A stretch of DNA of 51,522 nucleotides from an uncultured Candidatus Saccharibacteria bacterium (GCA_964483915.1 CAZADL010000002.1:1-51522); one strand, 5' to 3'; shown: positions 6,267-39,170, counted from the first letter of the stretch. Translations and numbers: made by a program. The notes: generated from the sequence alone by a model not told the origin.

Positions 6267-7046
6267 ATGCAGAAGCTTGGCCAACATTTTCTGAAAAATA
6301 AATTTGCCCTACGGCTCATCGCGGAATCTCTCGATCTCGCGCCGGACGATGTCGTGATTGAGATCGGTCCCGGCCACGGTGAGCTGACGGAATTCCTGCG
6401 AAGCGCGCATTGCAAATCGCAAATCATCCTTGTTGAAAAAGATAAAAAACTTTCCGACCTTTTAAAAGAAAAATTTGCCGGCGACAGCCGCATAACGGTT
6501 ATGGAGGGAGATGCACGAAGGATGCTCGCGGAGACTGGTCGCAAGTCGCTCATCGCAAATCACAATTACAAAATTGTCGGTAACATTCCGTATTACATCA
6601 CCGGCCATCTTTTGAGAATTCTTGGCGAGCTTGGCCATAAACCAAGCCGGTGCGTTTTCACGATTCAGAAAGAGGTTGCGGAACGGGTTTGCGCCGCGCC
6701 GCCGCGCATGAACCGCCTCGCGGCGAGTGTTCAATTTTGGGCGAACGTAAAAATAATAAAAACGCTTCCTGCAAGTGATTTTATTCCTCCACCAAAAGTC
6801 TCTTCGGCGATCGTTGCTTTGGAAACGATCAGACCGACAAAATCCAATACTCAAGAATACTATGCTGCCGTTCGGGCTCTTTTTACCCAGCCGCGGAAGA
6901 CCGTTGTGAACAATCTTGCGGTGGCGATCGGGAAAAAGAAGGATGTGGTGGCGGAAAAATTATCTATCGTCGGCATACATCCAGGCGGTCGGGCGCAAAA
7001 CCTCGGCGTTGATGACGTCATAACTGTCGCAAAGACGTTTTTCTGA
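6267..7046 (+). CDS. rsmA: 16S rRNA (adenine1518/1519-N6)-dimethyltransferase RsmA/KsgA
   Basis: It has the LGQHFL opening, SAM motif VIEIGPGHGELT, the GNIPYYIT motif and a FxPPPKVxS motif. Confidence 0.9.
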   Translation: MQKLGQHFLKNKFALRLIAESLDLAPDDVVIEIGPGHGELTEFLRSAHCKSQIILVEKDKKLSDLLKEKFAGDSRITVMEGDARRMLAETGRKSLIANHNYKIVGNIPYYITGHLLRILGELGHKPSRCVFTIQKEVAERVCAAPPRMNRLAASVQFWANVKIIKTLPASDFIPPPKVSSAIVALETIRPTKSNTQEYYAAVRALFTQPRKTVVNNLAVAIGKKKDVVAEKLSIVGIHPGGRAQNLGVDDVITVAKTFF

Positions 7047-7049: not shown

Positions 7050-7117
7050 GTCATTCCGTGCCGCGGCACGGAATCCAGATTTTTATTCCTGGATCCCGTT
7101 TTTCAGCAGGATGACAG
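7050..7117. repeat. Nested-hairpin repeat (GTCATTCCG...GGAATCC...GGATGAC family)
   Basis: The sequence is gtcattccgtgccgcggcacggaatccagatttttattcctggatcc...caggatgacag. It contains the internal palindrome attccgtgcc-gc-ggcacggaat. Confidence 0.6.
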
Positions 7118-7164
7118 AAAAACCAAAGTCATCCACATGTACTTGACTTTCCATTTGCGGTACA

Positions 7165-9717
7165 ATGGAAATAATGCTGGATGTCAAAAAACTCATCACA
7201 GGCTTTCTTATTTTGACGCTCGGCGCGAGCACGGCGGCGTGGATATTGTCCGGAACAAATAATCAACCGCGTGCGGTTTCAGAGGCGGAAAATCCGGCGG
7301 TAACACAGCCCCTCAATAACGCTTTTATAAATACCACGAGCACCGTCCCGCAGGACGTTGCGAATCTTCTTGCCGGAGCATTGCCGCCCGCGACAGAGGC
7401 GGCGCTCAACGATTCGAACAATCTCACGGCGGCAATGGGCAATTCTCTGCTTGACGGGCTGGTTTCCGCGAACCCCGACGGCATCCCAACCGACGCAAGC
7501 GGCAACGGGCAAATCAACCAGCCGGACGCCGGGGCGATCCTCGCGGAAATTTCCCAAAGCCCGTCCATTCAAAACCTCCGCGCCCCGAACTGGGAAGCTG
7601 ATGTTGCCGATAACCTGGCGAAGATAAAAATTTCTTCGGCGTCTTCGCGGCAAAGCATGGTTGATTACCTAAACGCGTTCGTCAGTATAAACAACAAATA
7701 TTTCGTTCAATCGGGCCTTCAGCAGATCGCGGACGAAGCATCAACGACAGATCCGTCTAGCCTCACCGTGGATCCCTCGGTCATGGCGAGCGCTGAAGTT
7801 TCCGTCACCCATGCGCTCGCCGACACGACACAGCTTGCGGTTCCCGCGCCCTTCGTGCCGTTTCAAAAGGCATGGATCCGTCTTTTGACCTACGAAAAAA
7901 ATACGGCGGATCTTTTTAACACAACGCCGACGGATCCGGCGCGAACCGCGGTTGCTCTTTCCCTTGAAAAAAACAACTACAATGGCGCACTGGCCGACCT
8001 TAGCACAACGTTTCAGAAAACACTGCGGGAAGAAAAAATTTCTATAAAGACGAACGAATCAGGGCAGGGTTCCATAACCGCATTCATAGGCGACTTATTC
8101 TTTGTCAAAACCGCCGACGCCGCCGTGGGCGTGAGCGTCCCCGTATATGACCCCCTCGTTGAAGCCGCGATTCACGGGAATACGGCCTCTATTCATGCCG
8201 TTGGTTGGGGAACGTTTTTCAAAAACCTTGCACTGGATATGGTGCTCCAGATTCTCAAAAACACGCTCATGGCCCAACTGCAAAATCACGTGCTCAAGTG
8301 GATCCAAAACAGCGGCGCTCCGCGGTTCGTCCAAAACTGGATGGACGACTTCGCGAACGCCGGCATCATGGCGGCGACGAACGCCATTGATAAAAATTTT
8401 GAATGTGTCTCAAGTGTCGTATTCCCGCAAATTCAAATCATCATGAACGCGATCTACAAGCCCGGAAACAGTGCTTGCGCGGCGCAATTCTCAAGTTTGC
8501 TTTCAGGCCATGATCTCCAAAATTTTTATGATAATTTCGCGAACGGAGGTTTTGTGACGTTCGGCCAAACTCTCTTGCCAAGCAATGACTTTTACGGGGG
8601 TCTTTTCTTCACGGCGCAGGTAGCCGGACAGGCGGCGTACCAAAGCCAAAACGTTTTGGGCGTCAAGATGACGGCCCAGCAGGGATTCAAAGGAACGGAG
8701 GTGTGTCCGCAGGGCGACGGCGACCCGAACGGATTCCATCTCACCTGCCCTGACGGCGCGCCGCCAAACACAACCTATAGCTGTCCAGGTGGTTATACGC
8801 TTAATAATTCCGACAATATTTGTAATAGTCCCACTGGCGACATAGCGGCAATACCGAACGATACCTGCAGCGGAGGTCTGCTTCCAACTAATGAAGCAAA
8901 CAACGGCTTCTGTAATGATGGGGCATCTCCTAAAACCACTACTCCTGGCCAGCTTACCGGCATGATGCTCAACCAATCGCTCGGCACGGCGCCGAAGCTT
9001 ATCGCCGGAGCCACAACCATTGACGGACTTATAAACGCTTTCACTATTTCCCTTATTGAATCCATTGCTTCCCAACTCGTAACCTCCGTTTCGGGCGCTA
9101 TAAATAATTCCATAAACAACCTTTCAAGCGGCGGCCTGACCGGCATTAACCCCGGAAGCATCGTCGCCTCAACCAGCACGGCTTCGGCCTTGAGTTGTTC
9201 TCCTCTCACGACAATTGCTTCGCCGGGAGACCTTGTTGAGTTTACCGCCGGTGGCGGCACCTACGATACCGTGAACGGAAACTTGCCGGACTATGCCTGG
9301 TCATCGTCCGACGGGCAGACCGGAACGGGGCCTGTGTTTGACGTAACCTATGCCGCCACCGGAACCTATTCGGTCGCGCTCGGCGACTTACAGGGAGACG
9401 CGCCGGCGGTATGTGTCGCGCAAATCGGCGGAGGAGAAGGTTCGCAGAGCAGTGGCGTGGCATGTTCGCCAGCCACCCAGACCGTGACCTTCGGTACCAG
9501 CCATACGGTAACGCTCACCGCCACGGGCGGAGCGATCACCACGAGCGGCGGGAATCCGACCTACACGTGGTCAGCACCCGGTTCCACGGCGGCGAGCGGC
9601 GGGTTACATCCGGGCGATTCTTTCCAAGTAACATACAATGCCACGGGAACATATAACATATCTGTCGTCGCCTCGACGGACAACAGCAGCTCAACCTGCA
9701 CGGTCATTCTCCAATAA
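7165..9717 (+). CDS. Large secreted surface protein of the T4SS-like locus (N-terminal anchor, Cys-rich module, two C-terminal PKD/Ig-like repeats)
   Basis: 850 aa with an N-terminal TM/signal (ITGFLILTLGASTAAWIL) and a Cys-rich stretch (CPQGDG..CPDG..CPGG..CNSP..CSGG..CNDG, about 8701-8930). An internal duplication is present (...YAWSSSDGQTGTGPVFDVTYAATGTYSVAL versus ...YTWSAPGSTA..FQVTYNATGTYNISVV). The true start may be ATG 7174. Confidence 0.75.
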   Translation: MEIMLDVKKLITGFLILTLGASTAAWILSGTNNQPRAVSEAENPAVTQPLNNAFINTTSTVPQDVANLLAGALPPATEAALNDSNNLTAAMGNSLLDGLVSANPDGIPTDASGNGQINQPDAGAILAEISQSPSIQNLRAPNWEADVADNLAKIKISSASSRQSMVDYLNAFVSINNKYFVQSGLQQIADEASTTDPSSLTVDPSVMASAEVSVTHALADTTQLAVPAPFVPFQKAWIRLLTYEKNTADLFNTTPTDPARTAVALSLEKNNYNGALADLSTTFQKTLREEKISIKTNESGQGSITAFIGDLFFVKTADAAVGVSVPVYDPLVEAAIHGNTASIHAVGWGTFFKNLALDMVLQILKNTLMAQLQNHVLKWIQNSGAPRFVQNWMDDFANAGIMAATNAIDKNFECVSSVVFPQIQIIMNAIYKPGNSACAAQFSSLLSGHDLQNFYDNFANGGFVTFGQTLLPSNDFYGGLFFTAQVAGQAAYQSQNVLGVKMTAQQGFKGTEVCPQGDGDPNGFHLTCPDGAPPNTTYSCPGGYTLNNSDNICNSPTGDIAAIPNDTCSGGLLPTNEANNGFCNDGASPKTTTPGQLTGMMLNQSLGTAPKLIAGATTIDGLINAFTISLIESIASQLVTSVSGAINNSINNLSSGGLTGINPGSIVASTSTASALSCSPLTTIASPGDLVEFTAGGGTYDTVNGNLPDYAWSSSDGQTGTGPVFDVTYAATGTYSVALGDLQGDAPAVCVAQIGGGEGSQSSGVACSPATQTVTFGTSHTVTLTATGGAITTSGGNPTYTWSAPGSTAASGGLHPGDSFQVTYNATGTYNISVVASTDNSSSTCTVILQ

Positions 9718-9729
9718 CGCGCCCAAGCC

Positions 9730-12378
9730 ATGAAAAAAATATCTTATAAAAAAATCTTTGCGGTCGCGGCGATTGTTTCGGTGTTTCTGCCGATTGCAGC
9801 TTTTGCACAGAACTCACCTTCGCCACCAACGGCACCAACACCACCAATAGTATCGCTGCCACTGCCACCAGCAACGGGGGCGCCAATAACGCCAACGACA
9901 GTAACACCACCACCAACTTCATCGCAATCGGCCGCGACCCCAAACAATCCTAACAATTCCCTCGATTGTAAGGGCAGCCTCGCAACGTGTGCGGTATATT
10001 TTGTAGCATATTTTATTAACAAGCTGCTCGGGGTTTTTGTTGGGCTTGGTGCATCAATAACCGTCGGCGTTCTTGGACTCAACCTTACACAACTTCAGTC
10101 TTCTCCGTTAATCCTTGCGGGGTTTTCCATTAGTTTGTCGCTCGCAAACTTAGGTTTTATTCTCCTCATAATCATTATTGCAATTGCAACAATCCTAAGG
10201 GTTCAGAATTATAACATAAAAAAACTCCTTTGGAAATTGGTGGCTATGGCGATACTGATTAACTTTGGGCTTGTCATTGCGATGCCCATAATAAGTTTTT
10301 CCGACGGCTTGTCATTATATTTTGTCAACTCTATAGGAAAGGGAGGTGATTTGTCTACCCAGCTCACCACTGCGTTCAGTCCGGAAAAATTTACCTCTTC
10401 CGCCATTACGAACGGCATTCCAGTTGATGACTCCAAATGGAGCACTGCCAACTATGTGGCGACGGGCGTAGTTGGAGTGGCGTGGGCGGGGTGGGGATAT
10501 GCCGGGGGAGCGGCTGTTTGCGCGGCGGGTGGTGTCACTATCATCGCGGCCCCTGCTTGCGGGTTTATCGGTGCCGCCATTGGAGGAGTCTTAGGAGCTT
10601 ACGTCGGTCATGGTGCCGGGAGCCTCTACGACTTAATAAAAAATGGTAATTTCAATGATGCGTTTGTCTCCATGATTATCGGACAGGTAACTGCTGCGGC
10701 TATCCTAGCTATTATCGCGCTCACCATGATAGCTTTCGGGGTAATGCTTTTGGTCCGCTATGTTTATCTCACCATTCTTCTTGTCGTCTTACCCCTTGCG
10801 TGGCTCTGTTGGGCGTTCCCTGGTCTCGGTGGTCATTTTCAAAAATGGTGGCGTCTTTTTCTGCGTTGGACATTTTTCCCTGTTATAGCGCTCTTCTTCG
10901 TCTACTTGGCGCTTTTGGTGGTAATGGGCCAACAAGCTATAGTGCCCAAAGACACCTCAATAAGCCTCTCCGCCCAAACACTAAATAATATCGCCCTTGC
11001 CGCCATGATGCTCGGTGGCCTTTATGCCGCAAACGCGCTCGGCATCGCCGGCGCGGATATCGCGATGGGATATGCGAAGGCAGGAGGTAAGTGGGTCGGT
11101 GCCTATGCCGGAAAACAAGGAAAGAAAACTGCCCGGTTGGGCTATCAGAAGATGGGGGGCGAAAGGTTTAATAAAGTATTACAGGAGGGGAACATTCTTG
11201 GCGTGCCAATACGAAAAATTCCGCTTCTCGGCAGAGGGGCGTCCCTTCTTGGTCGCGGCATTGCGAGCGTATCAACCAACGAAAAATTAGTGGATGATGC
11301 AAAGAAAAATGTTCCCAAAGACCCAAAGCAAACCAAACAACGTCTGGCCGGGTCTATGAACAAACAAGATCAGTTTGCCCATATCGCCGCACTGGTTGCG
11401 TCGGGCGATCTAACGGGAGACGAGATGATAAATGGACAAAATATAAAGGACTTCATGGATTCTAATGAAAACACCGTCAGGCGCTACGGCCAGGGCAAAC
11501 TTTCAAAAGACGTCGACAAAGCGCTCTTTAGTAATAAAGAAATGCGTGATGCGGCGAAGGTGGGCAACCAAGAGAAGCTGGGCGAGGCTGGAAAGAAGTT
11601 CCGCGCTAATTTTTCCAGGGGCGACGCTTCAAAATCGGTTAATGTTGATACTGTCTTTGCTGATCCAAATAGTCTCTTGGCGCAATCCCAGTGGCGCGGA
11701 GTTGAGTTGGAACGCCCGGATTTGATGTCGACCATTTTTGCCAAGGCGAAGGGCACAACAATGGAAAACATCAGCAAAATGCACGAGGGCGTTAAGCTGG
11801 AATCAGAAACGGCGGCGAAAACAGAAGAGGCCAAGCTTAAAGCGCAAAAAGAATCGATTATTCAAAACGAGGAATCAAAGATGACCAACGAACATAATAA
11901 CGCAACAGAGGCGATCAGAAATAAAAATTCTGACAAAGACAATGAGAGTAACCAGTTGCTTTCGAAAATCGCCCATGAAATAGAGGGACTAAAGAAAGAG
12001 CATGATATAACCAACAAGGAGATTGGGCCGGACGGTCTTCCTACTATCGGAAGTACAAGAAAACTTGAGGCAATCGGGGAACGACAGATTGGGTTGGAAA
12101 AACAGCGTGCCGAAATACAATCTTCAATAGACCAAAGAAGGGACTCACTTGATAAGGCCGCAGCCGACGGACTGAGGGGGATAAAAGAAAAAATAACCAT
12201 TATGCGCGATAAACTATATGGCGACGCCGCTCGCGAAGCCAGAATTAATGTGGGGGTCGACCACTATGACAGGACTTTGGCCAATAGCATTCTTAATTAT
12301 GTCCCTGGTCCAACAAGCCCCGAGGCGGCTCCTTCGACACCACCGCCGCCGCCAAGCCCAGGCGGAGGAAATAAATAA
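9730..12378 (+). CDS. Polytopic membrane protein, VirB6/TrbL-like, with long cytoplasmic coiled-coil tail
   Basis: 882 aa. It has a signal peptide plus Pro-rich linker, many TM helices across about 10000-11060, then a K/E/Q-rich coiled-coil and a PPPPPSPGGG end. The VirB6 assignment rests on topology and context only. Confidence 0.6.
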   Translation: MKKISYKKIFAVAAIVSVFLPIAAFAQNSPSPPTAPTPPIVSLPLPPATGAPITPTTVTPPPTSSQSAATPNNPNNSLDCKGSLATCAVYFVAYFINKLLGVFVGLGASITVGVLGLNLTQLQSSPLILAGFSISLSLANLGFILLIIIIAIATILRVQNYNIKKLLWKLVAMAILINFGLVIAMPIISFSDGLSLYFVNSIGKGGDLSTQLTTAFSPEKFTSSAITNGIPVDDSKWSTANYVATGVVGVAWAGWGYAGGAAVCAAGGVTIIAAPACGFIGAAIGGVLGAYVGHGAGSLYDLIKNGNFNDAFVSMIIGQVTAAAILAIIALTMIAFGVMLLVRYVYLTILLVVLPLAWLCWAFPGLGGHFQKWWRLFLRWTFFPVIALFFVYLALLVVMGQQAIVPKDTSISLSAQTLNNIALAAMMLGGLYAANALGIAGADIAMGYAKAGGKWVGAYAGKQGKKTARLGYQKMGGERFNKVLQEGNILGVPIRKIPLLGRGASLLGRGIASVSTNEKLVDDAKKNVPKDPKQTKQRLAGSMNKQDQFAHIAALVASGDLTGDEMINGQNIKDFMDSNENTVRRYGQGKLSKDVDKALFSNKEMRDAAKVGNQEKLGEAGKKFRANFSRGDASKSVNVDTVFADPNSLLAQSQWRGVELERPDLMSTIFAKAKGTTMENISKMHEGVKLESETAAKTEEAKLKAQKESIIQNEESKMTNEHNNATEAIRNKNSDKDNESNQLLSKIAHEIEGLKKEHDITNKEIGPDGLPTIGSTRKLEAIGERQIGLEKQRAEIQSSIDQRRDSLDKAAADGLRGIKEKITIMRDKLYGDAAREARINVGVDHYDRTLANSILNYVPGPTSPEAAPSTPPPPPSPGGGNK

Positions 12379-13419
12379 TTGTTACCCATGGTTACGATAA
12401 CCAAAAATCGAGCATTGGAACGTTGGGATTCTCTTCCTCCTGTTTTAAGAGAAGCCCTCTGTTCCGACATTAATTCTGACTTTGTCTGGAAAACCTGTGA
12501 GGCGGAGTTCGTGCCGGATGAAAAAATATATTCGGTTGCCCGGCTTGTGGGCTATGTCCTCATGGGATTTCTTCATCCCGAGGACATGGCTTCGGAAATC
12601 AGAAGTACTATTGGCGTTGACTTACGGATTGCGACACCCATCGCGAACGCCATCAATCAACGAATATTCGTCCCGATTCGAGGAGATATAGATAAAATCT
12701 ATGGGCCGGCCGCGGCGATAGCGCCGAAAATTATTGAGGAAATTCGGCCAGCCGCAAAAATATCCCCGCCTGTTCCTGCGCCGTTTCCTATTGTTCCTTC
12801 TGGAGCTCCACGGCCATCGGCAATTCCGCCGCCGCCAAAAAAAGAGCCAACGAGAATTGTTTCCGAAAAACCACCTTCGCTTGATGAATTTGCAAACCTT
12901 AAAAAACCTGTCCCGCCCTCATCGCCGGCGCCATCCCTCAAACCGATCGTCCTCCAGACCGAATCGGTTTCTCGGCCCATACCGAATGCCCCGAATTTCA
13001 AGATACCAACGATTGCAGAAAATGTTATGGGCGGAGAGAAGGCGACCGTACCACTGCCCACCGCACCGGCTGTCATTGAAATCGGCGGTGTGCCAACTCC
13101 GAAAGCCGCTCCCGCGCCGAAATTTTCTGTCTCTCCTCCTAAATCAACGGGCGCTACTCCAATAATGCCGCCGACACCGGAACCCATGAGAACCATAACA
13201 GAAATAACGCCGGACACGCTAAAAAGAGCGGTTCCTACGCCAAAGGCGCCACCACCGCCACCGCCATTTGCGCCGCTTTCACAAATTCCTGTTCCCTCGT
13301 CGAGTGTGCCGAAACCTCCTGCTCCAAGCGTACCTCCACCGCCAAAACCGTCCGTTCCGCCAGGGCCAATACCGAAGCCAGGAGACCAAAGCGGAGGAAT
13401 CGTCCAGAAAAATTATTGA
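12379..13419 (+). CDS. Hypothetical protein: globular N-domain plus ~230 aa proline-rich tail
   Basis: The ORF abuts the previous stop codon (TTG 12379 or ATG 12388). About 40% of the C-terminal two thirds is Pro/Ala/Ser/Lys (PPPPKKEP..., PPAPSVPPPPKPSVPPGP). Confidence 0.55.
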   Translation: MLPMVTITKNRALERWDSLPPVLREALCSDINSDFVWKTCEAEFVPDEKIYSVARLVGYVLMGFLHPEDMASEIRSTIGVDLRIATPIANAINQRIFVPIRGDIDKIYGPAAAIAPKIIEEIRPAAKISPPVPAPFPIVPSGAPRPSAIPPPPKKEPTRIVSEKPPSLDEFANLKKPVPPSSPAPSLKPIVLQTESVSRPIPNAPNFKIPTIAENVMGGEKATVPLPTAPAVIEIGGVPTPKAAPAPKFSVSPPKSTGATPIMPPTPEPMRTITEITPDTLKRAVPTPKAPPPPPPFAPLSQIPVPSSSVPKPPAPSVPPPPKPSVPPGPIPKPGDQSGGIVQKNY

Positions 13420-13481
13420 GAAAGAGAGAATCCCACGAAGGTCGCCCTCGATCCAGTCGAGGGTCCGTGCTCCTTCCAATC

Positions 13482-13769
13482 TTAAAAATCGTCTGATAAA
13501 TCTTTCCACTCTGGATTTTCGGTTTTAATAAGACGAATTTTCCATGCCCGATTCCAGTGTTTGAGTTGTTTCTCTCGTCGTATTGCGTCTAATGGATTTG
13601 AATAAAATTCGTAATACACAAGACGGCAGAGGTGATATTTTTTTGTAAAACCATCTATGGCCTCGCGTTTATGTTCTTCCGCCCTACGAACCAGATTGTT
13701 CGTAATCCCGATATATAATAATCCTCCCGGATGGTCGGCGAGTATATAAACGTAATATGACTTATTCAT
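13482..13769 (-). CDS. GIY-YIG nuclease family protein (95 aa, stand-alone)
   Basis: It has YYVYILADHPGGLLYIGITNNLVRRAEEHK and ..REKQLKHW.., the classic GIY-YIG motifs. It is the only minus-strand gene inside the plus-strand T4SS-like block. Confidence 0.85.
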   Translation of the reverse strand: MNKSYYVYILADHPGGLLYIGITNNLVRRAEEHKREAIDGFTKKYHLCRLVYYEFYSNPLDAIRREKQLKHWNRAWKIRLIKTENPEWKDLSDDF

Positions 13770-13810
13770 TTTTCTTATTCTCGGAAAGAAATATTAAAAT
13801 ATTCTTAAAG

Positions 13811-14000
13811 CACGGATGGTCCGTCTCCACGGACCATGACAAGGGATATCTGAATTCCGGCTTTGGTTCGACTACGCTCACCATAAGTCGCTGGAATGAC
13901 AGAGAGAAAATATGGATTTCGGCGTTCGCCGGAATGACAGAGGGGAAACATGGATTCCAGCTTTGGTTCGACTACGCTCACCACAAGTCGCTGGAATGAC
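13811..14000. repeat. Repeat cluster: 9-bp-stem hairpin plus two ~49-bp direct repeats 100 bp apart
   Basis: A hairpin atggtccgt-ctcc-acggaccat lies at 13815-13837. The sequence gaattccggctttggttcgactacgctcaccataagtcgctggaatgac (13852-13900) repeats at 13952-14000 with 3 mismatches. The motif cgttcgccggaatgacag is also found at 21085. Confidence 0.65.
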
Positions 14001-14007
14001 TGATTCT

Positions 14008-14016
14008 TGATATAAT
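14008..14016 (+). promoter_or_regulatory. Extended -10 promoter (TGaTATAAT), 6 nt upstream of ATG 14023
   Basis: TGATATAAT is followed by aaaaat and then ATG. No Shine-Dalgarno is possible, so this is the leaderless geometry. Confidence 0.45.
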
Positions 14017-14022
14017 AAAAAT

Positions 14023-14505
14023 ATGCAATTCCAAGTTCCTCAATTCATTGAAACAGAGGATAAGGTCGTGGGACCGTTCACACTCCGGCAGTTTATGTAT
14101 GTCGCTGGGGCGGGCGTTCTCAGCGCTGTTCTCTATTTTACCGTTGCGACGTGGATCTGGTTTATCCTTACTGTCGTCATCCTTGGCGGAGCGATTGGCG
14201 TCGCTTTTGTCAAAATTGAAGGTCGGCCGCTCGGCAACGTGATCCTTTCGGCGCTCGGTTTCTATTGGAAGCCGCAAACATACATTTGGAAATCAAAAGA
14301 GGAACTTACCGCGACAGCACAAAGCCAAGAAGGTGGCGGTCTCTCGCTGGAAAAAATTATTACCGGTACGTTGCTCCATAAACGCTGGGAAGGCCTTCAG
14401 GGCGGACAAAAGATGCCCGTTGAAAACAAAATGAACTCGCGATATCAAATCTTTCGGAGGATCAGCGGGGCACGCGACGCCGCAAAGAGGGTGGACTATA
14501 GGTGA
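14023..14505 (+). CDS. PrgI family (VirB3-like) small T4SS membrane protein
   Basis: The N-terminus (QVPQFIETEDKVVGPFTLRQFMYVAGAGVLSAVLYF) is followed by two TM helices, matching the PrgI-family pattern. It sits directly upstream of VirB4. Confidence 0.7.
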   Translation: MQFQVPQFIETEDKVVGPFTLRQFMYVAGAGVLSAVLYFTVATWIWFILTVVILGGAIGVAFVKIEGRPLGNVILSALGFYWKPQTYIWKSKEELTATAQSQEGGGLSLEKIITGTLLHKRWEGLQGGQKMPVENKMNSRYQIFRRISGARDAAKRVDYR

Positions 14506-14636
14506 AAAGAGTCGCCCTCGATCAAGTCGAGGATCCATACTTTAAATGCGGGTGCCAAAAACACGGGTGGTCCGCCGGAGTTTATCCCGAGCGTGCCGAG
14601 GGACCGACCATGACGCTGCTTTCGCCGGAATGATGG
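14506..14636. repeat. Composite hairpin repeats
   Basis: The sequence gtcgccctcgatcaagtcgaggatcc is related to 13439-13468. The sequence ccgccggagtttatcccgagcg has its reverse complement inside tsaD at about 45475. The cluster ends in ttcgccggaatgatgg. Confidence 0.55.
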
Positions 14637-15362
14637 ATGGATTATACTACAACCATGCCTGCCCCTCTCTCGAAACAAAATGCGGGGAACTCGCTTGATC
14701 TTGTTGATATCAAGGAAATCCGCGGCAATGTTGTCGTCGTACAAGACGGCAGTTTGCGGCAGGTTGTGATGGTTGGAGGCGTCAACTTTGCGCTGAAATC
14801 GGACGCGGAACAGACGCTCATCGTCCAGGCATATCAAAACCTTTTGAATAGTATTGGTTTCCCGCTTCAGATCATTATACATTCCCGAAAGGTGAACATT
14901 GATGCCTACCTCGCGTCCTTGTTGCGCCGCAAAGAGACCGAGCCGTCACCGCTCCTCCAAAGCCAGATTGATGAATATGTAAGCTTTGTTCGGGAGTTCG
15001 TGGAGAAGAACTCTATCATGGAAAAAATGTTTCTGGTTGTTGTGCCGTTCTATCCGGAGGGGGGCGCCATCGCGGGAACCGCGAAAGCCGCATCGGGCGT
15101 TTTCTCTTCTGTTTTCCACAAGAAGAAGCCCGCACTCGCTCAAAACGCGGCGCCAAAAACCGACGAGGAGGCGGATCATATTTTCAAAGAAAACGTTCAG
15201 CAGCTTACCCAGCGGGTGGCCCAGGTTATCAATGGCATCATGGGCATCGGTCTTGATGCAAGTGTTCTTGAAAACCAGGAGCTGGTCGAGCTTTTCTATA
15301 ATTTCTATAATCCCCAAACTGTTGAGCGGGGGAACATCGTCGCACAGCAGAAAACACAATAA
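14637..15362 (+). CDS. VirB4/TrbE-like protein, N-terminal domain fragment
   Basis: The pattern DIKEIRGNVVVVQDGSLRQVVMVGGVNFALKSDAEQTLIVQAYQNLLNSIGFPLQIIIHSRKVNIDAYL is typical of the VirB4 N-terminal region of monoderm systems. The ORF ends at TAA 15360-15362, in the same frame as the next ORF. Confidence 0.65.
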   Translation: MDYTTTMPAPLSKQNAGNSLDLVDIKEIRGNVVVVQDGSLRQVVMVGGVNFALKSDAEQTLIVQAYQNLLNSIGFPLQIIIHSRKVNIDAYLASLLRRKETEPSPLLQSQIDEYVSFVREFVEKNSIMEKMFLVVVPFYPEGGAIAGTAKAASGVFSSVFHKKKPALAQNAAPKTDEEADHIFKENVQQLTQRVAQVINGIMGIGLDASVLENQELVELFYNFYNPQTVERGNIVAQQKTQ

Positions 15363-15371
15363 TTTTCATCC

Positions 15372-17126
15372 ATGCCCGTGGAACAAAACAAACAAAGCAA
15401 TCAGGCCCAGTTCGGCGACGTTAAAAAAATCATCGCTCCTGCGGGTGTGCAGGTTTTTTCCAATTATCTCAAGATCGGCGACAAGTTTGCTAAAACGTTC
15501 TTTGTATTCTCCTATCCGCGCTATCTCACCACGGGCTGGTTTGAACCCTTGATCAACCTGCCCAATCTTTTTGATATTTCAATTTTTATCAATCCGATTG
15601 ACACCGGCACCGCGCTCAAAAATCTGCGAAGGAAGGCAGGCCAGCTTGAGTCGCAAAGGAACGATGAGGCGGAAAGGGGGCTGGTGCGGAATCCAGAACT
15701 TGAAACCGCCATTCAAGATATTGAAACCCTCCGCGACTCGCTCCAGCAATCCGAGGAAAAACTTTATAGCACCGGCGTCTATATCACTATTTATGCAGAC
15801 AACGAAGAAGAGTTGGCGCGCCTTGAAAGTAAAATTACGAGCATGATGGAGGCGAAGATTGTTTATATTAAGCCGGCGCTCTTTGAACAGCTTGAAGGTC
15901 TTTTTTCCATTCTGCCGCTTGATGAAGACAAGATTGATGTTACGACCCCCATGGACACAGGCCCCATTTCTTCATTCTTTCCGTTTATTTCCGAAGACCT
16001 TACCTCAAATCAGGGAATTATGTATGGCATCAATCTCCACAACAGCAATCTCGTCATCTTTGACCGCTTCTCGCTTGAAAATGCAAACCAAGTTGTCTTT
16101 GCGAAGGCCGGTTCGGGGAAATCATACGCAACAAAACTGGAAATCATTCGCTCGCTTATGGCGGGCGTTGATATGGTCCTCGTCATCGATCCCGAGAACG
16201 AATACCAGCGGCTCACCGAAACCTTCGCCGGCAGTATGTTTAACATTTCGCTCTCGTCGCATGAACACATCAATCCGTTCGATATCCCGCTCATTCCGGA
16301 AGGCGAGGACCCGTCCGACGTGCTTCGCTCTCACATCGTGACCCTCGCGAGTTTATTAAAACTCATGCTCGGCAAAGTAACACCGGAAGAAGACGCGCTT
16401 CTTGACCGGGCAATCACGGAAACGTACGCCTCGCGCGAGATCGTCCCGGGCATGGATTTCGCCGGTAAAGAAGCGCCGCTCTTGAGCGACCTTGAGTCCG
16501 TCCTTCGCAATCTTGAAGGCGGAGGCGCCATGGCCGAAAAACTTTACAAATACACCAAGGGGAGCTTCTCGGGATTTATCAATCAGCCAACCAACATCGA
16601 CGTCAATAACCGCCTTATTGTTTTTTCAATCCGCGATCTTGAACAGGAGCTCCGGCCCATCGGCATGTTTGTGGTCCTCAATTACATTTGGAATATTGTC
16701 CGCGCGAAACTTGAGAAGCGCCTGCTCTTTATTGATGAGGCATGGATCATGATGCAAAATGACGATAGCGCGACATTCCTCTTCGGCCTCGTAAAGCGAT
16801 GCCGTAAATATTATCTTGGGGTTACTACCATTACCCAAGACGTCGAGGACTTTTTGCGTTCGCCGTATGGCCGCCCCATTGTAACCAACTCCTCCATTCA
16901 ACTGCTCCTAAAGCAGTCCCCGGCAACCATTGATATCGTGGCAAAAGCGTTTGATCTCACGGACTACGAAAAAAATTTTCTTTTGGGCGCCGAGATCGGC
17001 ACGGGAATATTCTTTGCCGGCAAACGCCATGTCGCGATCCAGATCGTTCCTTCTTATTTTGAGGATCAAATCATCACAACCAATCCTGAACAGCTTCTCG
17101 AAGAGAAGGAGGCTGGCACTGCGTGA
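15372..17126 (+). CDS. virB4: VirB4/TrbE-like T4SS ATPase (middle and C-terminal ATPase domains)
   Basis: It has Walker A FAKAGSGKSYATK and Walker B LLFIDEAWIMM. It also has YLGVTTITQDVEDF and a ..SYPRYLTTGWFEPLI.. segment typical of VirB4. Confidence 0.85.
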   Translation: MPVEQNKQSNQAQFGDVKKIIAPAGVQVFSNYLKIGDKFAKTFFVFSYPRYLTTGWFEPLINLPNLFDISIFINPIDTGTALKNLRRKAGQLESQRNDEAERGLVRNPELETAIQDIETLRDSLQQSEEKLYSTGVYITIYADNEEELARLESKITSMMEAKIVYIKPALFEQLEGLFSILPLDEDKIDVTTPMDTGPISSFFPFISEDLTSNQGIMYGINLHNSNLVIFDRFSLENANQVVFAKAGSGKSYATKLEIIRSLMAGVDMVLVIDPENEYQRLTETFAGSMFNISLSSHEHINPFDIPLIPEGEDPSDVLRSHIVTLASLLKLMLGKVTPEEDALLDRAITETYASREIVPGMDFAGKEAPLLSDLESVLRNLEGGGAMAEKLYKYTKGSFSGFINQPTNIDVNNRLIVFSIRDLEQELRPIGMFVVLNYIWNIVRAKLEKRLLFIDEAWIMMQNDDSATFLFGLVKRCRKYYLGVTTITQDVEDFLRSPYGRPIVTNSSIQLLLKQSPATIDIVAKAFDLTDYEKNFLLGAEIGTGIFFAGKRHVAIQIVPSYFEDQIITTNPEQLLEEKEAGTA

Positions 17127-17129
17127 TTT

Positions 17130-18023
17130 ATGGACGAACAGAAAAAAACTTTTGATGAGGTTTCGATTGTCATTATGGTGCTTCTCGCGCTCGGAAACGA
17201 TGGTGCCGAGATTTTTTTTGACCTTCTTGCCGCAACCGTAATTGGTCTTCCGGGAGAAGCGATCATGGAACCTGTCAATCTCGCGCTGGATGGAGTCTTT
17301 ACCGTCTGGTTCTTCGCGAAATGCGGTTTTGGTGTACCGTCCGTCTTACAACTTCTTGACGATGGTCTCCAGCTGGTCGGCGTCCCGGGGCGGACCATTT
17401 GTGTCATTGCTGGCATTCTTATCGCAAATAATCCGAAGTTTAAGAAAATTGCAGAAGCCGTTGCCGCGGTTGAGGGCGGTGGTGTTGCCGGAGAAATCAA
17501 GGGAGCAGGGGGGGCGGCACAAGCCGAAGGAGTTGTCGCAAAAGAAACAAAGCTGGGGGCCGGAGGGGTAAAAACAGAAGAAGGGGTTCCCGTTGGCGCC
17601 GAAGGTGGGACGGGACGCGTCGAAGAAGAAAGAAAAAGAGTTGGCGCGGCACCTTCAGAAGGGAGGCCGGAAACTGGCGGCGAAGAGGGAGGCAAAGAAA
17701 AAACCCAGGAAGAGCTGGATAAAGAAGCCCGAGAAAAGAAGGCGGAGGAAGAAATGAGGCAACCGGGAGAAGTGCCGCCAATGGAGGCCCTCCAGCAAGA
17801 GACCCTTGAACAAACACCGCAAGCGCCAGGACAAGAAACCGAAGAGGGCGAAGAGGTGTCCTCTGGATCGCAACCACGGCAACCAATTTCAATTGAAGAT
17901 ATTAAACGCATACAAGCCGCCAAAACAAAAGAGGGCCTTGAACATCCAAAAGCTCCGCATGACGTCACACAAGAAAATACAGAAGAAAACAAAAAAGACG
18001 TCGATCTGCCAAGGGCGGCGTAA
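17130..18023 (+). CDS. Membrane protein with Gly/Glu/Lys-rich low-complexity tail (T4SS-like locus)
   Basis: It starts 4 nt after the VirB4 stop. It has 3-4 N-terminal hydrophobic helices, then a GGGVAGEIKGAGGAAQAEG...EEERKR...EEGEE tail. I preferred it over the antisense 333-aa shadow ORF. Confidence 0.55.
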   Translation: MDEQKKTFDEVSIVIMVLLALGNDGAEIFFDLLAATVIGLPGEAIMEPVNLALDGVFTVWFFAKCGFGVPSVLQLLDDGLQLVGVPGRTICVIAGILIANNPKFKKIAEAVAAVEGGGVAGEIKGAGGAAQAEGVVAKETKLGAGGVKTEEGVPVGAEGGTGRVEEERKRVGAAPSEGRPETGGEEGGKEKTQEELDKEAREKKAEEEMRQPGEVPPMEALQQETLEQTPQAPGQETEEGEEVSSGSQPRQPISIEDIKRIQAAKTKEGLEHPKAPHDVTQENTEENKKDVDLPRAA

Positions 18024-18079
18024 CTACATGAAATTTTTAACGAGATCCATATCGTTTCAGGCCGCACGAGAAATCCTCA

Positions 18080-18170
18080 GTTGTCGTTCTGTGCCCCGAC
18101 ACGGACTCAAGGGAGGGCGATCCTGGATCCCGGATAAATTGCGCAATGCAATTTTCCAGGATGACAAACA
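18080..18170. repeat. Hairpin repeat sharing a ~46-bp core with 21706-21751
   Basis: The core cctggatcccggataaattgcgcaatgcaattttccaggatgacaa compares with cctggagcccggataaattgcgcaacgcaattttccgggatgataa. It has an inner stem aaattgc/gcaattt and an outer stem tcctgg/ccagga. Confidence 0.6.
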
Positions 18171-18219
18171 ATTGTCTGAAAATTGTAAATTGCTAAATTG
18201 AAAATTTCTTTATCGGATT

Positions 18220-18228
18220 TGCTATAAT
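18220..18228 (+). promoter_or_regulatory. Extended -10 promoter (TGcTATAAT), 6 nt upstream of ATG 18235
   Basis: The motif tgctataat is followed by aacagc and then ATG. Confidence 0.45.
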
Positions 18229-18234
18229 AACAGC

Positions 18235-18933
18235 ATGAAGGTTCGCGTTAAAATCCTTTTGTCGGTTCTCGCGGTAGCGTTGCTTGCGGTGACGTTTTCC
18301 TTGAAAACCAACGCCCAATCCGCCACGCCGCAGATGATAGTAACCTGGCAGGCATATGGAAGTTATGTCCCGCCGGAGTATCGTGGTAAGGCGCTCCCCA
18401 ACCAAGAATCAACCCTTACGGCGTCGCTTGAACTTCTTTCGAATGGAAAATCTGTTGATCTCTCCAGTCAAACTATCTATTGGTATCTCGATAATACGCT
18501 TATCGGAGGCGGCGTCGGCAAACAATATATTGTTTTTCCTCCGTTCGGCGCCGCGCCGGCGTTTCTTATTCTCAAAACGGAATTGTCAAGCTATAACGGA
18601 GGCCTTCTGTCCCATCAGGTTCAAATCCCCTTGGTCGATCCGAAAGCGGTAATTGAGGCCCCCCATCCCGCCGGACAGTTCTCGGAGAATCCGATAACGG
18701 TTGGGGGGACCCCATATTTCTTTTATGTCTCGGATCCCGGGGCGCTTTCTTACGCGTGGTCGGTAAACGGCCAGACGTCGGCGGCCGCGGAAAATCCGCA
18801 GACGCTCCAGATTAATCTGGATCCCTCGATGCCGTCGGGGTCGTCATTCAATGTTTCCCTCGCTATCACAAACCCCAACGACTCAATGAGCGGAAATGAT
18901 TCAACGAATGTGATTTATGTAAAACAACTATAA
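18235..18933 (+). CDS. Secreted hypothetical protein (two Ig-like-looking modules)
   Basis: It has a signal peptide MKVRVKILLSVLAVALLAVTFSLKTNAQS. Two segments are related (TIYWYLDNTLIGGG.. and LSYAWSVNGQTS..). Confidence 0.65.
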   Translation: MKVRVKILLSVLAVALLAVTFSLKTNAQSATPQMIVTWQAYGSYVPPEYRGKALPNQESTLTASLELLSNGKSVDLSSQTIYWYLDNTLIGGGVGKQYIVFPPFGAAPAFLILKTELSSYNGGLLSHQVQIPLVDPKAVIEAPHPAGQFSENPITVGGTPYFFYVSDPGALSYAWSVNGQTSAAAENPQTLQINLDPSMPSGSSFNVSLAITNPNDSMSGNDSTNVIYVKQL

Positions 18934-18940
18934 TCCTCGT

Positions 18941-19029
18941 GTCGTTCCGGCGCATGCCGGAATCCATACCATGAACACAACAATTAAAAAAACGTTTTGG
19001 TTCTGGATTCCCGCCTTCGCGGGAATGAC
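18941..19029. repeat. Inverted pair of hairpin repeats bracketing the pilin start codon
   Basis: The sequence gtcgttccggcgcatgccggaatccat lies at 18941-18967. The inversely oriented ctggattcccgccttcgcgggaatgac lies at 19003-19029. The second copy is translated as WIPAFAGMT. Confidence 0.55.
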
Positions 19030-19714
19030 GTGGTTGTTGGCGTTGCCTGCTCTCGCCATCGTCATCTCGCCCGCCATACCCGGCATGACTACGGCCGTCA
19101 CCTCAAACACCTCCTCGGGGGCGTTTGTCTCGGGGTTCTATAACTTCGCCCTCATGATCGGCGGGGTTCTCGCGTTCGGGGCCATTGTCTATGGAGGCAT
19201 TCTCTATGCGGCGTCCGCCGGAAATCCGAGCAAGCAGTCCGAGGGAAAGGAATGGGTCAAAAGCGCCCTCTTAGGTCTCCTCCTCCTTGCCGGATCCTAT
19301 CTGATTCTCTATACCATAAATCCCAACCTCGTGAACCTGAATTTGCCGACCTTGGAGGCGATCAATATTGCGGCACCGCCGGCCACATGTACTAATGTTT
19401 GTCCAACAGGAAGCTCTCCCATTAATGCGCCGAGTCGCCCGGGAGGCGCGCTCGACTGTACCTGCACAAATGCTTCTGGAGATGTTTTTTGTGGGGGGGT
19501 ACACAACGCCAGGTGTCCCAACGACGCCAATGGCAACGCGCAGACGTGCACTAACCAAGGATCTACTGTCGCCCCTAATTGGCAGTGTATAAAAACGTCG
19601 CCAGGCACGCCGACCACCTACAAGTGTGGGGATTCGTCACACAATATAGTAAATTGTCCGATAGGAGTGGGCTGTTGGTATCAGAACGGAGAGTACCGAT
19701 GCGCCCCTCATTAG
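18971..19714 (+). CDS. TrbC/VirB2-like T4SS pilin with Cys-rich C-terminal extension
   Basis: It has a long signal region, then two TM helices flanking a short loop (FYNFALMIGGVLAFGAIVYGGILYAASAGNPSKQSEGKEWVKSALLGLLLLAGSYLILYTINPNL). This resembles the VirB2/TrbC fold and the CPR 'T4SS pilin' family. About 115 aa with 14 Cys follow. Confidence 0.7.
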   Translation: MNTTIKKTFWFWIPAFAGMTWLLALPALAIVISPAIPGMTTAVTSNTSSGAFVSGFYNFALMIGGVLAFGAIVYGGILYAASAGNPSKQSEGKEWVKSALLGLLLLAGSYLILYTINPNLVNLNLPTLEAINIAAPPATCTNVCPTGSSPINAPSRPGGALDCTCTNASGDVFCGGVHNARCPNDANGNAQTCTNQGSTVAPNWQCIKTSPGTPTTYKCGDSSHNIVNCPIGVGCWYQNGEYRCAPH

Positions 19715-19759
19715 GGCAAGCACAAAGAAAAATATAAGTTTGGGTATTAAAATAAAACC

Positions 19760-20983
19760 ATGAAATCAAAACTTCTCTTGTATCTTTTAATAGCCGTCGC
19801 TATTGTCGCCGTTGCAGCATTCGTCGTCTATCAGCTTGTTTACCGTACAAGCAATAACGTTCCCGTGGAAACGGGCGCGGGACAAGCTGGTCTGCTTCCT
19901 GGTGCGACAAGCCAACCATTTCCGTCGACCGGGCAACCTTTGCCATCAAGCTCGGCAGTCGGGACCTTCGGTGCGAGCGGGACAAGCGCGTCATCATCCC
20001 AATTCGGCATCATCTCAAACCATCCCACACTTGATTATTTTGTGAGTGTGGCGAACATCGTAACGCTTATCAAACCGGACGGAATTATTGAATCAATAGC
20101 CAACAATGAGACGAATGTTTTAAGCAGTTCTACGGTGCCAAACATCATAAACGCCGCGTTTTCTTATGACGGTAAAAAAATTTTCATAGCCTACCGCGCT
20201 GGGACCACGACACAATCCAGCGTGTTTGATCTTGCCGCGCGGGCGTGGACCCATCTCCCGAATGGCATGCTGAGCCCCGTGTGGTCGCCCACAAATTATC
20301 AAATCGCATATCTCGTGCCGTCAAACCAAGGATCTGAAACGTTGATGACAATTGACGCGGGAACAGCAAATGCAAAACCCGCCACTCTTACCTCTCTCAC
20401 CATGGAAGATATGGCGCTCCAGTGGCCAAACAAAAACACCGTAATCATTTCCGATCGCCCAAGCGCTTTCACGGCAGGATCGGTTTGGCTCTTTGATATT
20501 CCTTCTAAAACATTGTCTTCGGTTTCTTATGAGAATCTTGGCGCGGAAAGTTCATGGAACGCTTCTGGTTCGGCGCTCCTCTTTTCGGCAGGATCAAACA
20601 ATGCCGGCGGACGGTTGATGTTTCGAGACGCCGCAGGAAATCAAAAAACACTTTCTTTTGTGACACTTCCCTCCAAGTGCGTTTTCGAACCGCCCGTGGC
20701 GGCAGCTTCTGGAACTGCCAATCCGCCGGTCCTTGTTTATTGTTCCGTGCCGAGCGACCAGGGCACGCTTTTGCTCGCCCGCCTCCCCGATGAATATGAC
20801 CAAAATATATATTTCACGAATGATGATTTCTACCGCATTGACACCGGCAGCGGATCGCTCACAAGAATCTTCTCATCCGCAACAATAAACCAAACCATTG
20901 ACGCCACGCGTCTCAAAATATTCAACAACATTCTTTTCTTCGTCAATCGCTACGACGCGAAACTTTACGCGCTGGTGCTATAG
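19760..20983 (+). CDS. Membrane-anchored TolB-like beta-propeller protein
   Basis: The N-terminal anchor is paralogous to the product of 4996-6249. PD40/WD40-like beta-propeller repeat signatures are present (FSYDGKKIFIAY, SPVWSPTNYQIAYLV, SSWNASGSALLFSA). Confidence 0.65.
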   Translation: MKSKLLLYLLIAVAIVAVAAFVVYQLVYRTSNNVPVETGAGQAGLLPGATSQPFPSTGQPLPSSSAVGTFGASGTSASSSQFGIISNHPTLDYFVSVANIVTLIKPDGIIESIANNETNVLSSSTVPNIINAAFSYDGKKIFIAYRAGTTTQSSVFDLAARAWTHLPNGMLSPVWSPTNYQIAYLVPSNQGSETLMTIDAGTANAKPATLTSLTMEDMALQWPNKNTVIISDRPSAFTAGSVWLFDIPSKTLSSVSYENLGAESSWNASGSALLFSAGSNNAGGRLMFRDAAGNQKTLSFVTLPSKCVFEPPVAAASGTANPPVLVYCSVPSDQGTLLLARLPDEYDQNIYFTNDDFYRIDTGSGSLTRIFSSATINQTIDATRLKIFNNILFFVNRYDAKLYALVL

Positions 20984-21125
20984 AACGTCGTTTCGGAAGC
21001 CCAACGGGGCTATCCGGAATCCATGCCACTCGAAACATTATCTTCGTTGAAAATGCGAATGTTCTATAAGGTATGGGTTCCGACGTTCGCCGGAATGACA
21101 GGGGGAAAGACATGAATTCCGGCTA
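20984..21125. repeat. Hairpin repeat cluster
   Basis: The sequence cgacgttcgccggaatgacagggggaaagacatgaattccggct parallels 13922-13962. The motif ggctatccggaatccatgcc is also present. Confidence 0.5.
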
Positions 21126-21643: not shown

Positions 21644-21751
21644 GTCATTCCGTGCGGAGCCTGCCCCGTACGCCGATACGGGGACGCGACCCCGGAAAAA
21701 ACGTCCTGGAGCCCGGATAAATTGCGCAACGCAATTTTCCGGGATGATAAC
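21644..21751. repeat. Composite hairpin repeat between yidC and jag
   Basis: It contains gtcattccgtgcgg..., the stem ccccgta-cgccga-tacgggg, and the 46-bp core shared with 18122-18168. Confidence 0.6.
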
Positions 21752-34228: not shown

Positions 34229-34310
34229 AAGGAAAGAAGCGATTAGCGACCGGCGATGAGAAAAGTTAAAACCCTAATCGCTCGCCACTAATCGCCAATC
34301 GCTAAATTCC
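34229..34310 (+). repeat. Intercistronic hairpin element ('CGCTAATCGC' family), paralogous to 34779-34857
   Basis: The 3' 34 nt (cctaatcgctcgccactaatcgccaatcgctaaa) are nearly identical to the segment preceding fusA. The 5' part (gcgattagcg, ggcgatgag) is complementary to it. Confidence 0.5.
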
Positions 34311-34778: not shown

Positions 34779-34857
34779 GAAAAAGCGATGAGCGACTAGC
34801 GATTAGCAAAATCGAAGACCTAATCGCTGATGACTAATCGCCAATCGCTCAAATTTT
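34779..34857 (+). repeat. Intercistronic hairpin element ('CGCTAATCGC' family), paralogous to 34229-34310
   Basis: The sequence is gcgatgagcgactagcgattagc ... cctaatcgctgatgactaatcgccaatcgctcaaa, directly before the fusA ATG. Confidence 0.5.
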
Positions 34858-37261: not shown

Positions 37262-37364
37262 TCAAGCTCCCATACTCTGCTTATCGGAGTCGACCACCGA
37301 CAATTATTGAGACACGATTTTAATATTCTTGACATGGAGAGCGGCTTTTTTTGTTTGTTGTATA

Positions 37365-39092: not shown

Positions 39093-39106
39093 TGAACGTG
39101 CCCCTT

Positions 39107-39165: not shown

Positions 39166-39170
39166 AATTG

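Follow-up and report, generated by a model that had tools for sequence, protein, structure and literature searches.

Introduction

In the Patescibacteria (candidate phyla radiation, CPR), the ATPase VirB4 of type IV secretion systems (T4SSs) was found in 2,417 of 3,035 genomes, where its sequences group as one monophyletic clade within MPF_FATA (Quinonero-Coronel et al. 2025, PMC12102498). According to this study, TrsD is the most abundant associated component, and PrgI/VirB3, VirB6, and VirB2-like pilins are encoded near virB4. VirB8 and VirB1 are rare, relaxases are nearly absent, and a type IV coupling protein (T4CP) is seldom encoded nearby. In the Paceibacteria the virB4 neighborhood is rich in dnaA, dnaN, rnpA, ksgA, and rpmH (PMC12102498). 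For Southlakia epibionticum, transposon sequencing (Tn-seq) identified SEML1_0005-0019 as essential for epibiotic growth, and it was already remarked that this cluster contains pilins while relaxase and coupling protein are missing (Wang et al. 2023, PMC10633639). A 2025 review counts the Patescibacteria T4SS among the most intriguing recent additions to the T4SS superfamily, since no T4SS before it had been shown to be essential for the bacterium that carries it, and points to the presence of a pilin in a monoderm (PMC12857230). The pilin is no longer an anomaly, because VirB2-like pili have been reported in most Gram-positive T4SSs and were needed in one of them (preprint, bioRxiv 10.64898/2025.12.18.695078). 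Here, we compare with these systems a T4SS-like gene block at positions 7165-20983 of contig CAZADL010000002.1 (GCA_964483915.1). The whole stretch of DNA that was analyzed, referred to as the window, comprises 51.5 kb and is the entire contig as far as assembly look-ups show.

We consider it probable that the block is the core chromosomal T4SS-like system of Paceibacteria-type Patescibacteria, i.e. a member of the published, MPF_FATA-derived "Patescibacteria clade," and that it serves epibiotic host interaction and not conjugation. Membership in the clade is proposed because of the matches of VirB4, TrsD, PrgI, and pilin, the lack of a relaxase or T4CP nearby, and the ksgA/dnaA setting; the placement itself relies on the score against the CD1110 model and on the identity to patescibacterial VirB4 proteins, and is a probable one. 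An earlier note on this DNA had described a monoderm-type T4SS-like apparatus without local conjugation genes in a small-genome CPR bacterium, which agrees with our results. Its proposal of a host-interaction role is the same inference as that made in the literature (PMC10633639 and PMC12102498). The novelty that it implied does not hold: the core system, including the missing relaxase, the pilin, TrsD, and the ksgA/rnpA/dnaA/dnaN setting, has already been published in papers of 2023-2025 (PMC12102498, PMC10633639, PMC12857230).

Core Components of the Apparatus

ORF calling yielded ten long open reading frames (ORFs) on the plus strand, separated by short gaps across 7165-20983, and all ten were intact. 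Every ORF listed in the earlier note was present on that strand. Its count of eleven co-directional genes has to be lowered to ten, since the eleventh ORF (13757-13999) is built of repeats and is probably not a gene; the common direction stands.

The VirB4 ATPase (15372-17126, 584 aa) matched P-loop_TraG with an E-value of 4.8e-24 as well as AAA_10, DUF87, and TraC_F_IV in Pfam, and it scored 401 bits against the NCBIfam model "VirB4-like, CD1110 family" (cut-off 325). The match spans positions 185-734 of the 752 positions of this model, so relative to a canonical VirB4 the ORF comprises the C-terminal three quarters. Its translation contains intact Walker A (GSGKS) and Walker B (LLFIDEAW) motifs. 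A genome scan returned >594 VirB4 relatives. The 80 best of them, with 53-92% identity, all came from metagenome-assembled genomes (MAGs) of Patescibacteria, and their surroundings, many of them truncated, are used below as the related loci. The closest relative in a plasmid collection was the VirB4 of Pontibacillus sp. ALD_SL1 (35% identity over 97%).

The gene preceding virB4 encodes a TrsD-like protein of 241 aa (14637-15362), and its TAA stop lies 9 nt upstream of the virB4 start. This protein matched the NCBIfam model VirB4_plasma at positions 98-196 of 894 (E = 4.4e-10), TIGR00929 at 21-170 of 792, CD1110 at 15-118 of 752, and the TrsD/TraD family model with an E-value of 1.7e-6 (NCBIfam). 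In profile-profile comparisons its family aligned with staphylococcal TrsD (hhalign probability 90%, E = 1.7e-6) and with the ORF preceding VirB4 on the Pontibacillus megaplasmid (probability 99.8%). A TrsD-like gene was found in 78 of the 80 related loci, as a separate ORF in 74 and in one frame with VirB4 in 4 (L043, 768 aa, 9368-11671; L032; L045; L048). Because of the complementary model coverage, the hhalign results, and the natural fusions, we identify the 241-aa protein, as judged from its sequence, as the equivalent of a detached N-terminal VirB4 domain of the TrsD/TraD family. Given the prevalence of separate ORFs (74 of 78 loci, against 4 with a fusion), the same comparisons identify the split as an ancient conserved arrangement and not as damage. 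The earlier note had singled out a VirB4 in two pieces; two ORFs are indeed present, but a TrsD/TraD gene plus virB4 is the normal state in systems of the pGO1/pIP501 type and in those of Patescibacteria. We rejected recoding or read-through at the junction, because the stop is TAA and the split is conserved. Split and fused TrsD-VirB4 states thus coexist within one lineage, and the available excerpts of PMC12102498 contain no statement on this coexistence.

The product of 14023-14505 is a PrgI/VirB3-like protein with two transmembrane (TM) segments, which reached 37.2 bits against PF12666 (cut-off 27). The VirB2-like pilin (18971-19714) scored 33.7 bits against T4SS_pilin PF18895 (cut-off 26.6) and gave a weak match to the Mbov_0395 pilin. 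Its signal peptide is followed by a hairpin of two helices (aa ~52-118) and by a C-terminal extension with 12 cysteines (aa ~140-247); topology prediction gave two TM segments between signal and tail. In a multiple alignment, the columns of the hairpin were common to the Pontibacillus and staphylococcal CagC-family proteins. Among the pilin orthologues the tail may be missing or may extend over several hundred residues, without sequence relationship between the tails; the ORFs measure ~117-537 aa.

For the 882-aa polytopic protein (9730-12378), no match of its own was obtained in Pfam or NCBIfam. Ten of its 51 syntenic orthologues matched TrbL/VirB6 (PF04610), the best with an E-value of 6.8e-10. 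The family profile aligned with staphylococcal TrsL (TrbL family) and with a polytopic protein of Pontibacillus at hhalign probabilities of 52-55%, and both weak alignments cover the same 72-73 columns. About seven TM segments (aa 84-439) are followed by a K/E-rich, coiled-coil-like tail of ~440 aa and a proline-rich C terminus; a sequence-profile search of the PDB returned generic coiled coils only. Homology to VirB6 is therefore likely, being established transitively. In sum, the PrgI, VirB4, and VirB2-like pilin assignments of the earlier note pass the Pfam/NCBIfam cut-offs in hidden Markov model searches, and its VirB6/TrbL-like call is supported through the orthologues and the weak profile alignment.

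Conservation of the Locus

The related loci carry the labels Paceibacterota, Parcubacteria, Wolfe-, Lipton-, Harrison-, Azam-, Jorgensen-, Portnoy-, Nealson-, Specht-, Nomura-, and Moraniibacteria; some of the MAGs have generic labels. BLAST searches with the ORFs revealed a conserved order, which begins with ksgA, the 850-aa protein family, the VirB6-like protein, the proline-rich protein, PrgI, TrsD, and VirB4, and continues with the 3-TM protein (not always present), the two-Ig protein, the pilin, the beta-propeller protein, jag, yidC, rnpA, dnaA, and dnaN. Next to TrsD, orthologues were most frequent for PrgI (73 of the 80 loci), followed by the VirB6-like protein (55), the pilin (53), the two-Ig protein (47), the propeller (43), the proline-rich protein (37), and the 850-aa family (27).

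In the window, the block is preceded by dksA/traR-like, comM-like, and uvrD/pcrA genes, a minus-strand ORF, and ksgA/rsmA, and it is followed by jag (R3H), yidC, and rnpA, and then by dnaA and dnaN. These housekeeping flanks are conserved in genomes labeled Liptonbacteria, Harrisonbacteria, Jorgensenbacteria, and Azambacteria, among others. A Wolfebacteria locus (L022) has kept the block from ksgA to the propeller, and its downstream flank was not detected. The check for synteny across CPR genomes that the earlier note had proposed thus showed an order conserved from ksgA to dnaN in many species. Because the ksgA and jag-yidC-rnpA-dnaA-dnaN flanks are conserved across species, we regard the block as a core chromosomal locus and not as an integrated element. 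The GC content is uniform (0.48-0.54) in block and flanks alike.

Comparison with Described Systems

With the T4SSs of the Patescibacteria clade the locus shares VirB4, TrsD, PrgI/VirB3, a likely VirB6, and a VirB2-like pilin, the lack of a relaxase or T4CP nearby, and, as in the Paceibacteria, the chromosomal position by dnaA, dnaN, rnpA, and ksgA. The order VirB6-x-PrgI-TrsD-VirB4 parallels SEML1_0013 to SEML1_0008 in the homologous cluster of S. epibionticum. In that organism, SEML1_0005, which is exported, essential, and equipped with two Ig-like domains, is encoded beyond virB4 with two genes in between, and the 232-aa protein of the present block, alike in position and architecture, may be its counterpart. 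Unlike S. epibionticum, which has an array of six pilins, the block contains one pilin gene with a cysteine-rich tail. No lysozyme or peptidase is encoded downstream of virB4, as SEML1_0006 is, and no sequence match pointed to an NTF2/VirB8-like protein such as SEML1_0012; instead, a PKD-tailed member of a large family and 3-TM, proline-rich, and beta-propeller proteins are encoded.

The conjugative plasmids pGO1, pSK41, and pIP501 (MPF_FATA, trsB-trsC-trsD-trsE) have the same local order of VirB3-like protein, TrsD, and VirB4, together with a small CagC/VirB2-like protein and a TrbL/VirB6-like protein. They differ in encoding a relaxase, the VirD4-like TrsK, the CHAP hydrolase TrsG, TrsH, a topoisomerase, and a single-stranded DNA-binding protein, none of which occurs here.

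The closest non-CPR relative in the plasmid collection was found in Pontibacillus sp. ALD_SL1 (NZ_CP062975, 351-361 kb; L081). Its cluster has the same order: a pilin-like gene, a 779-aa polytopic protein, a small protein of 116 aa, a TrsD-like protein, and VirB4. In our comparison, this system was grouped with those of the Mycoplasma ICE Mbov_0395-0397 type. Unlike the present locus, the Pontibacillus cluster encodes a 1,050-aa peptidoglycan endopeptidase after VirB4, and it is without all five accessory families described below. The Pontibacillus megaplasmid is typed as non-mobilizable, neither a relaxase nor a coupling protein is annotated between 351 and 361 kb, and flagellar and chemotaxis genes adjoin the T4SS-like cluster.

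Five Partner Proteins

Beyond the core, the block contains five partner genes, four of which encode proteins with an N-terminal anchor or TM segments. Topology prediction gave a single N-terminal hydrophobic segment in each of the 850-, 232-, and 407-aa proteins. Because of this segment or a signal peptide, these three proteins and the pilin are expected to be exported by Sec. Such predicted Sec export of the large proteins fits poorly to T4SS cargo. The "adhesin-like cargo" of the earlier note is therefore unsupported; the proteins concerned are large, carry Sec-type N-terminal anchors, are conserved syntenic partners, and are more likely envelope parts of the machine than its cargo. The two Firmicutes clusters that were compared lack counterparts of all five families (850-aa core, 3-TM, two-Ig, propeller, and proline-rich).

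The 850-aa protein (7165-9717), predicted to be exported or membrane-anchored, has its hydrophobic segment at aa 10-29, a lineage-specific N-terminal extension, and 12 cysteines, with a cysteine-rich stretch behind the conserved core. The PKD modules noticed earlier were recovered by Pfam as two domains at the C terminus. This tail is confined to the closest relatives, with a PKD match in 6 of 27 orthologues, and these 27 are encoded immediately upstream of the VirB6-like gene. The conserved core comprises ~315 aa (aa ~347-661, nt 8203-9147) with the motifs WIQGGGxPxFVTNW ... CTL ... FYxNFxNGGWxAY ... PxNNxYG ... TPG ... INRL. A word-indexed search found 68 proteins with this core, mostly of 460-580 aa and called "hypothetical" wherever they were named. 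An exhaustive search found 6,072 representative clusters (50% identity) at E ≤ 1e-3 and 3,501 at E ≤ 1e-30. No match of the core was obtained in Pfam, NCBIfam, or the PDB sequences. AlphaFold2 models of the core had a pLDDT (predicted local distance difference test) score of 64 for the version in the window and 73 for a typical member (P0021). They show long helices and a confident beta-hairpin appendage, to which typical members add a confident C-terminal three-helix region. A Foldseek search of the PDB with these models returned nothing better than an E-value of 0.2. With no fold match, a VirB5-like or other identity could not be assigned. An assignment to DUF4141 was dropped, as it relied on a weak match in one orthologue and one database relative and no informative literature was found.

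The 346-aa protein (12379-13419) contains 75 prolines and a conserved N-terminal domain of ~110 aa; in the 37 loci that have it, its gene is located between those for VirB6 and PrgI. It is predicted to be cytoplasmic, since it has neither a signal nor TM segments. The 297-aa protein (17130-18023) combines a conserved N-terminal domain of ~110 aa with 3 TM segments and a variable, acidic, Gly/Glu-rich tail. Neither the 346-aa nor the 297-aa protein matched Pfam or NCBIfam. With blastp the 297-aa protein was found in 4 of 80 loci only, a low yield due to the low complexity of the tail; with jackhmmer its N-terminal domain was detected directly 3' of virB4 in 51 related loci.

The 232-aa protein (18235-18933), predicted to be exported or anchored, belongs to a family of >483 relatives, which are unnamed except for one labeled PapD by JGI. 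Among 36 orthologues, 14 had a BiPBP_C Ig-like domain and 3 matched PKD. The protein reads as two Ig-like beta-sandwich modules, and its candidacy as a VirB8 analogue was rejected for this reason. Sequence-profile searches of the PDB with the TrsD, two-Ig, and 850-aa families gave coiled-coil noise or nothing.

In the 407-aa protein (19760-20983), a linker rich in Ser, Gly, and Pro connects an N-terminal TM segment to a PD40/TolB-like beta-propeller. The propeller call of the earlier note finds support in a weak TolB match of the protein itself (E = 0.0099) and in PD40 matches of 10 of 42 orthologues; other propeller families were matched as well, and the peptidoglycan-binding domain PG_binding_1 was found in 2 orthologues.

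Functions Not Found in the Block and Its Surroundings

The earlier note had listed a relaxase, a coupling protein, VirB11, and a wall hydrolase as missing. In agreement with this, no scanned ORF of the 51.5-kb window encodes a relaxase, a VirD4/TraG protein (T4CP), VirB11, an integrase, or a wall hydrolase. Neither the window nor any of the 80 related loci, taken with flanks of 10 kb, gave a match to TrsK (T4CP) in tblastn and phmmer searches, and no relaxase was found in the flanks of these loci. There was also no oriT-associated gene adjacent to the block in the window, oriT itself not having been searched for; the locus thus lacks the neighbors by which the note would have recognized an ordinary integrated conjugative element. 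Neither the proteins of the block nor their orthologues contained a lysozyme, CHAP, or M23 domain. A VirB8-like NTF2-fold protein was not found by sequence match among the block proteins, the bitopic 232-aa protein reading as Ig-like. With respect to mobile-element boundaries, no integrase and no tRNA-linked edge were found, and the only tRNA in the window is located at 29430, 8 kb away.

Insertion, Repeats, and Neighboring Genes

The genome-specific interruption at 13420-14022 lies outside the apparatus. As the earlier note had indicated, it consists of a GIY-YIG nuclease ORF (13482-13769, minus strand; Pfam E = 6.6e-15) and flanking repeats, which are REP/MITE-like (resembling repetitive extragenic palindromic sequences and miniature inverted-repeat transposable elements) and are located at 13441-13471 and, as two units of ~100 nt, at 13843-14003. 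The 80-aa plus-strand ORF 13757-13999 consists of tandem repeats. The insertion sits between genes, namely that of the proline-rich protein and prgI, and the equivalent gap in L001 measures ~140 nt. A GIY-YIG ORF was found in none of the 80 related loci. A paralogue with 49% identity occupies 51004-51462 at the end of the contig and is likewise flanked by repeats of a similar kind (50847-50879 and 51460-51492). Because of the absence from the related loci and the presence of this paralogue, we interpret the GIY-YIG ORF as a recent local insertion, and together with the repeats it suggests a mobile GIY-YIG element.

REP/MITE-like palindromic families (core GGATTCCGGCGTTCGCCGGAATGACA) are dispersed over the intergenic spaces around the T4SS genes, with repeats at 13911-13947, 19002-19038, 21072-21108, and 48418-48447. 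Further pairs were found at 18121-18167 / 21704-21750 and 13441-13471 / 14511-14541, and one diverged copy lies within the signal-peptide codons of the pilin, where it is translated as IPAFAGMT. Short intergenic repeats rich in AATCGC/ATCGCT occur around rpsL, rpsG, fusA, and elsewhere (34234-34306, 34780-34852, 6397-6568, 29853-29888, 44949-44984, and 47259-47287).

The rest of the window contains housekeeping genes and a type IV pilus cluster (37329-44813) with pilB, pilT, pilC, and four N-methyl prepilins, which is located 16 kb downstream of the T4SS, beyond dnaA/dnaN and ribosomal genes. The minus-strand ORF between uvrD and ksgA (4996-6249) encodes 417 aa with hydrophobic segments at both ends, had no Pfam match, and was detected in 2 of the 80 related loci. 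A promoter scan performed no better than on shuffled sequence. After ksgA, a terminator-like hairpin was noted at 7053-7074, and position 7148-7175 resembles a weak promoter; both are suggestive only.

Discussion

If the block is a Patescibacteria-clade T4SS, its parts could act together as follows. An assembly of VirB4, which is assumed from canonical systems to be a hexamer, would be completed by TrsD and tethered by VirB3 to the VirB6 platform. It would extract the Sec-inserted pilin from the membrane, and the pilin may then polymerize into a short pilus or a conduit through the cell wall, with its variable cysteine-rich tail on the pilus surface. The anchored 850-aa, two-Ig, and beta-propeller proteins would form the wall-spanning or surface part that contacts the host cell. 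The service of such a machine would be epibiotic host interaction, by protein export or contact-dependent exchange, and not conjugation.

Several points weigh against this reading. The VirB6 call for the 882-aa protein draws on orthologues and weak profile alignments. The assigned roles of the five accessory proteins derive from position, topology, and domain type only, and the models of the 850-aa core were of modest confidence and matched nothing. With neither a VirB8- nor a VirB1-like part found among the block proteins, wall crossing is unexplained. To our knowledge, there are no experiments on any member of the Paceibacteria. Finally, a T4CP may be encoded elsewhere in the genome, as VirD4-like genes occur in most Patescibacteria genomes, mostly far from virB4 (PMC12102498).

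Three other explanations were weighed. Bordetella Ptl, Brucella VirB, Helicobacter ComB, and archaeal Ced operate without a coupling protein and a relaxase. The block shares these two absences with ComB and Ced, and it could accordingly be pictured as an import machine that takes up DNA or host macromolecules and feeds a nucleotide auxotroph. We regard this as unlikely. Nucleotide synthesis is missing in Patescibacteria (PMC10633639), which would suit such a function, and VirB4 did match the CedB model with an E-value of 2.6e-8; however, this match is weak and amounts to 33 bits against a cut-off of 700, whereas the conjugative VirB4 of the CD1110 type is matched with 401 bits. ComB- or Ced-specific partners are not present. 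The likeness to the four systems in lacking coupling protein and relaxase (PMC12857230) does not extend to sequence affinity past the VirB4 superfamily, and Ptl, Brucella VirB, and ComB, though not Ced, differ further in being diderm systems, which have a VirB7/9/10 core but lack TrsD. In S. epibionticum, deletion of comEC ends competence, a loss that is tolerated and leaves the cells viable, whereas the T4SS is essential (PMC12857230); the essential role is therefore not ComEC-linked DNA uptake.

Slightly less probable still is that the block carries out functional conjugation or effector translocation with a coupling protein, and possibly a relaxase, encoded elsewhere on the chromosome. T4CP genes are frequently distant from virB4, VirD4-like genes exist, as mentioned above, in most Patescibacteria genomes, and the inspected sequence covers 51.5 kb of the genome. 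However, relaxases occur in just 103 of 3,035 Patescibacteria genomes, and the distant T4CP of S. epibionticum is non-essential while its T4SS is essential (both according to PMC12102498). A T4CP within 10 kb was found in 0 of the 80 related loci, and the fixed site beside oriC among housekeeping genes is unlike that of a mobile element. The decaying remnant of an integrated conjugative element, with a broken VirB4, a nuclease/repeat insertion, and lost transfer genes, is very improbable: two VirB4 ORFs and the interruption by GIY-YIG ORF and repeats might suggest it, but it is contradicted by ten intact ORFs in an order conserved across many species, intact Walker motifs, a split that is the conserved TrsD plus VirB4 arrangement in 74 of 78 loci, an insertion that is intergenic, a GC content that matches the flanks, and the lack of an integrase or tRNA-linked boundary.

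We therefore retain the host-interaction T4SS of the Patescibacteria clade as the best explanation. As to what the earlier note called undescribed partners, the accessory families are indeed still uncharacterized, whereas the core system, TrsD, and the pilin are published. Of remaining interest are the undescribed conserved accessory set, the large unnamed family, the split versus fused TrsD-VirB4, and the variable pilin tail. A more far-reaching idea, which we put forward tentatively and consider doubtful, is that the five accessory families together form an undescribed wall-spanning, host-contact module that would take the place which VirB8, VirB1, and the adhesins have in Gram-positive T4SSs, and that the hypervariable cysteine-rich pilin domain along the pilus would determine host specificity.

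The window adds nothing to the core picture of the Patescibacteria T4SS. It is a clean Paceibacteria example, in which the fixed synteny leads to a shortlist of conserved uncharacterized partners, one of them from a family that comprises thousands of representative clusters and is matched by neither Pfam nor NCBIfam. These partners are leads for structural work on how a T4SS crosses a monoderm wall and recognizes a bacterial host.

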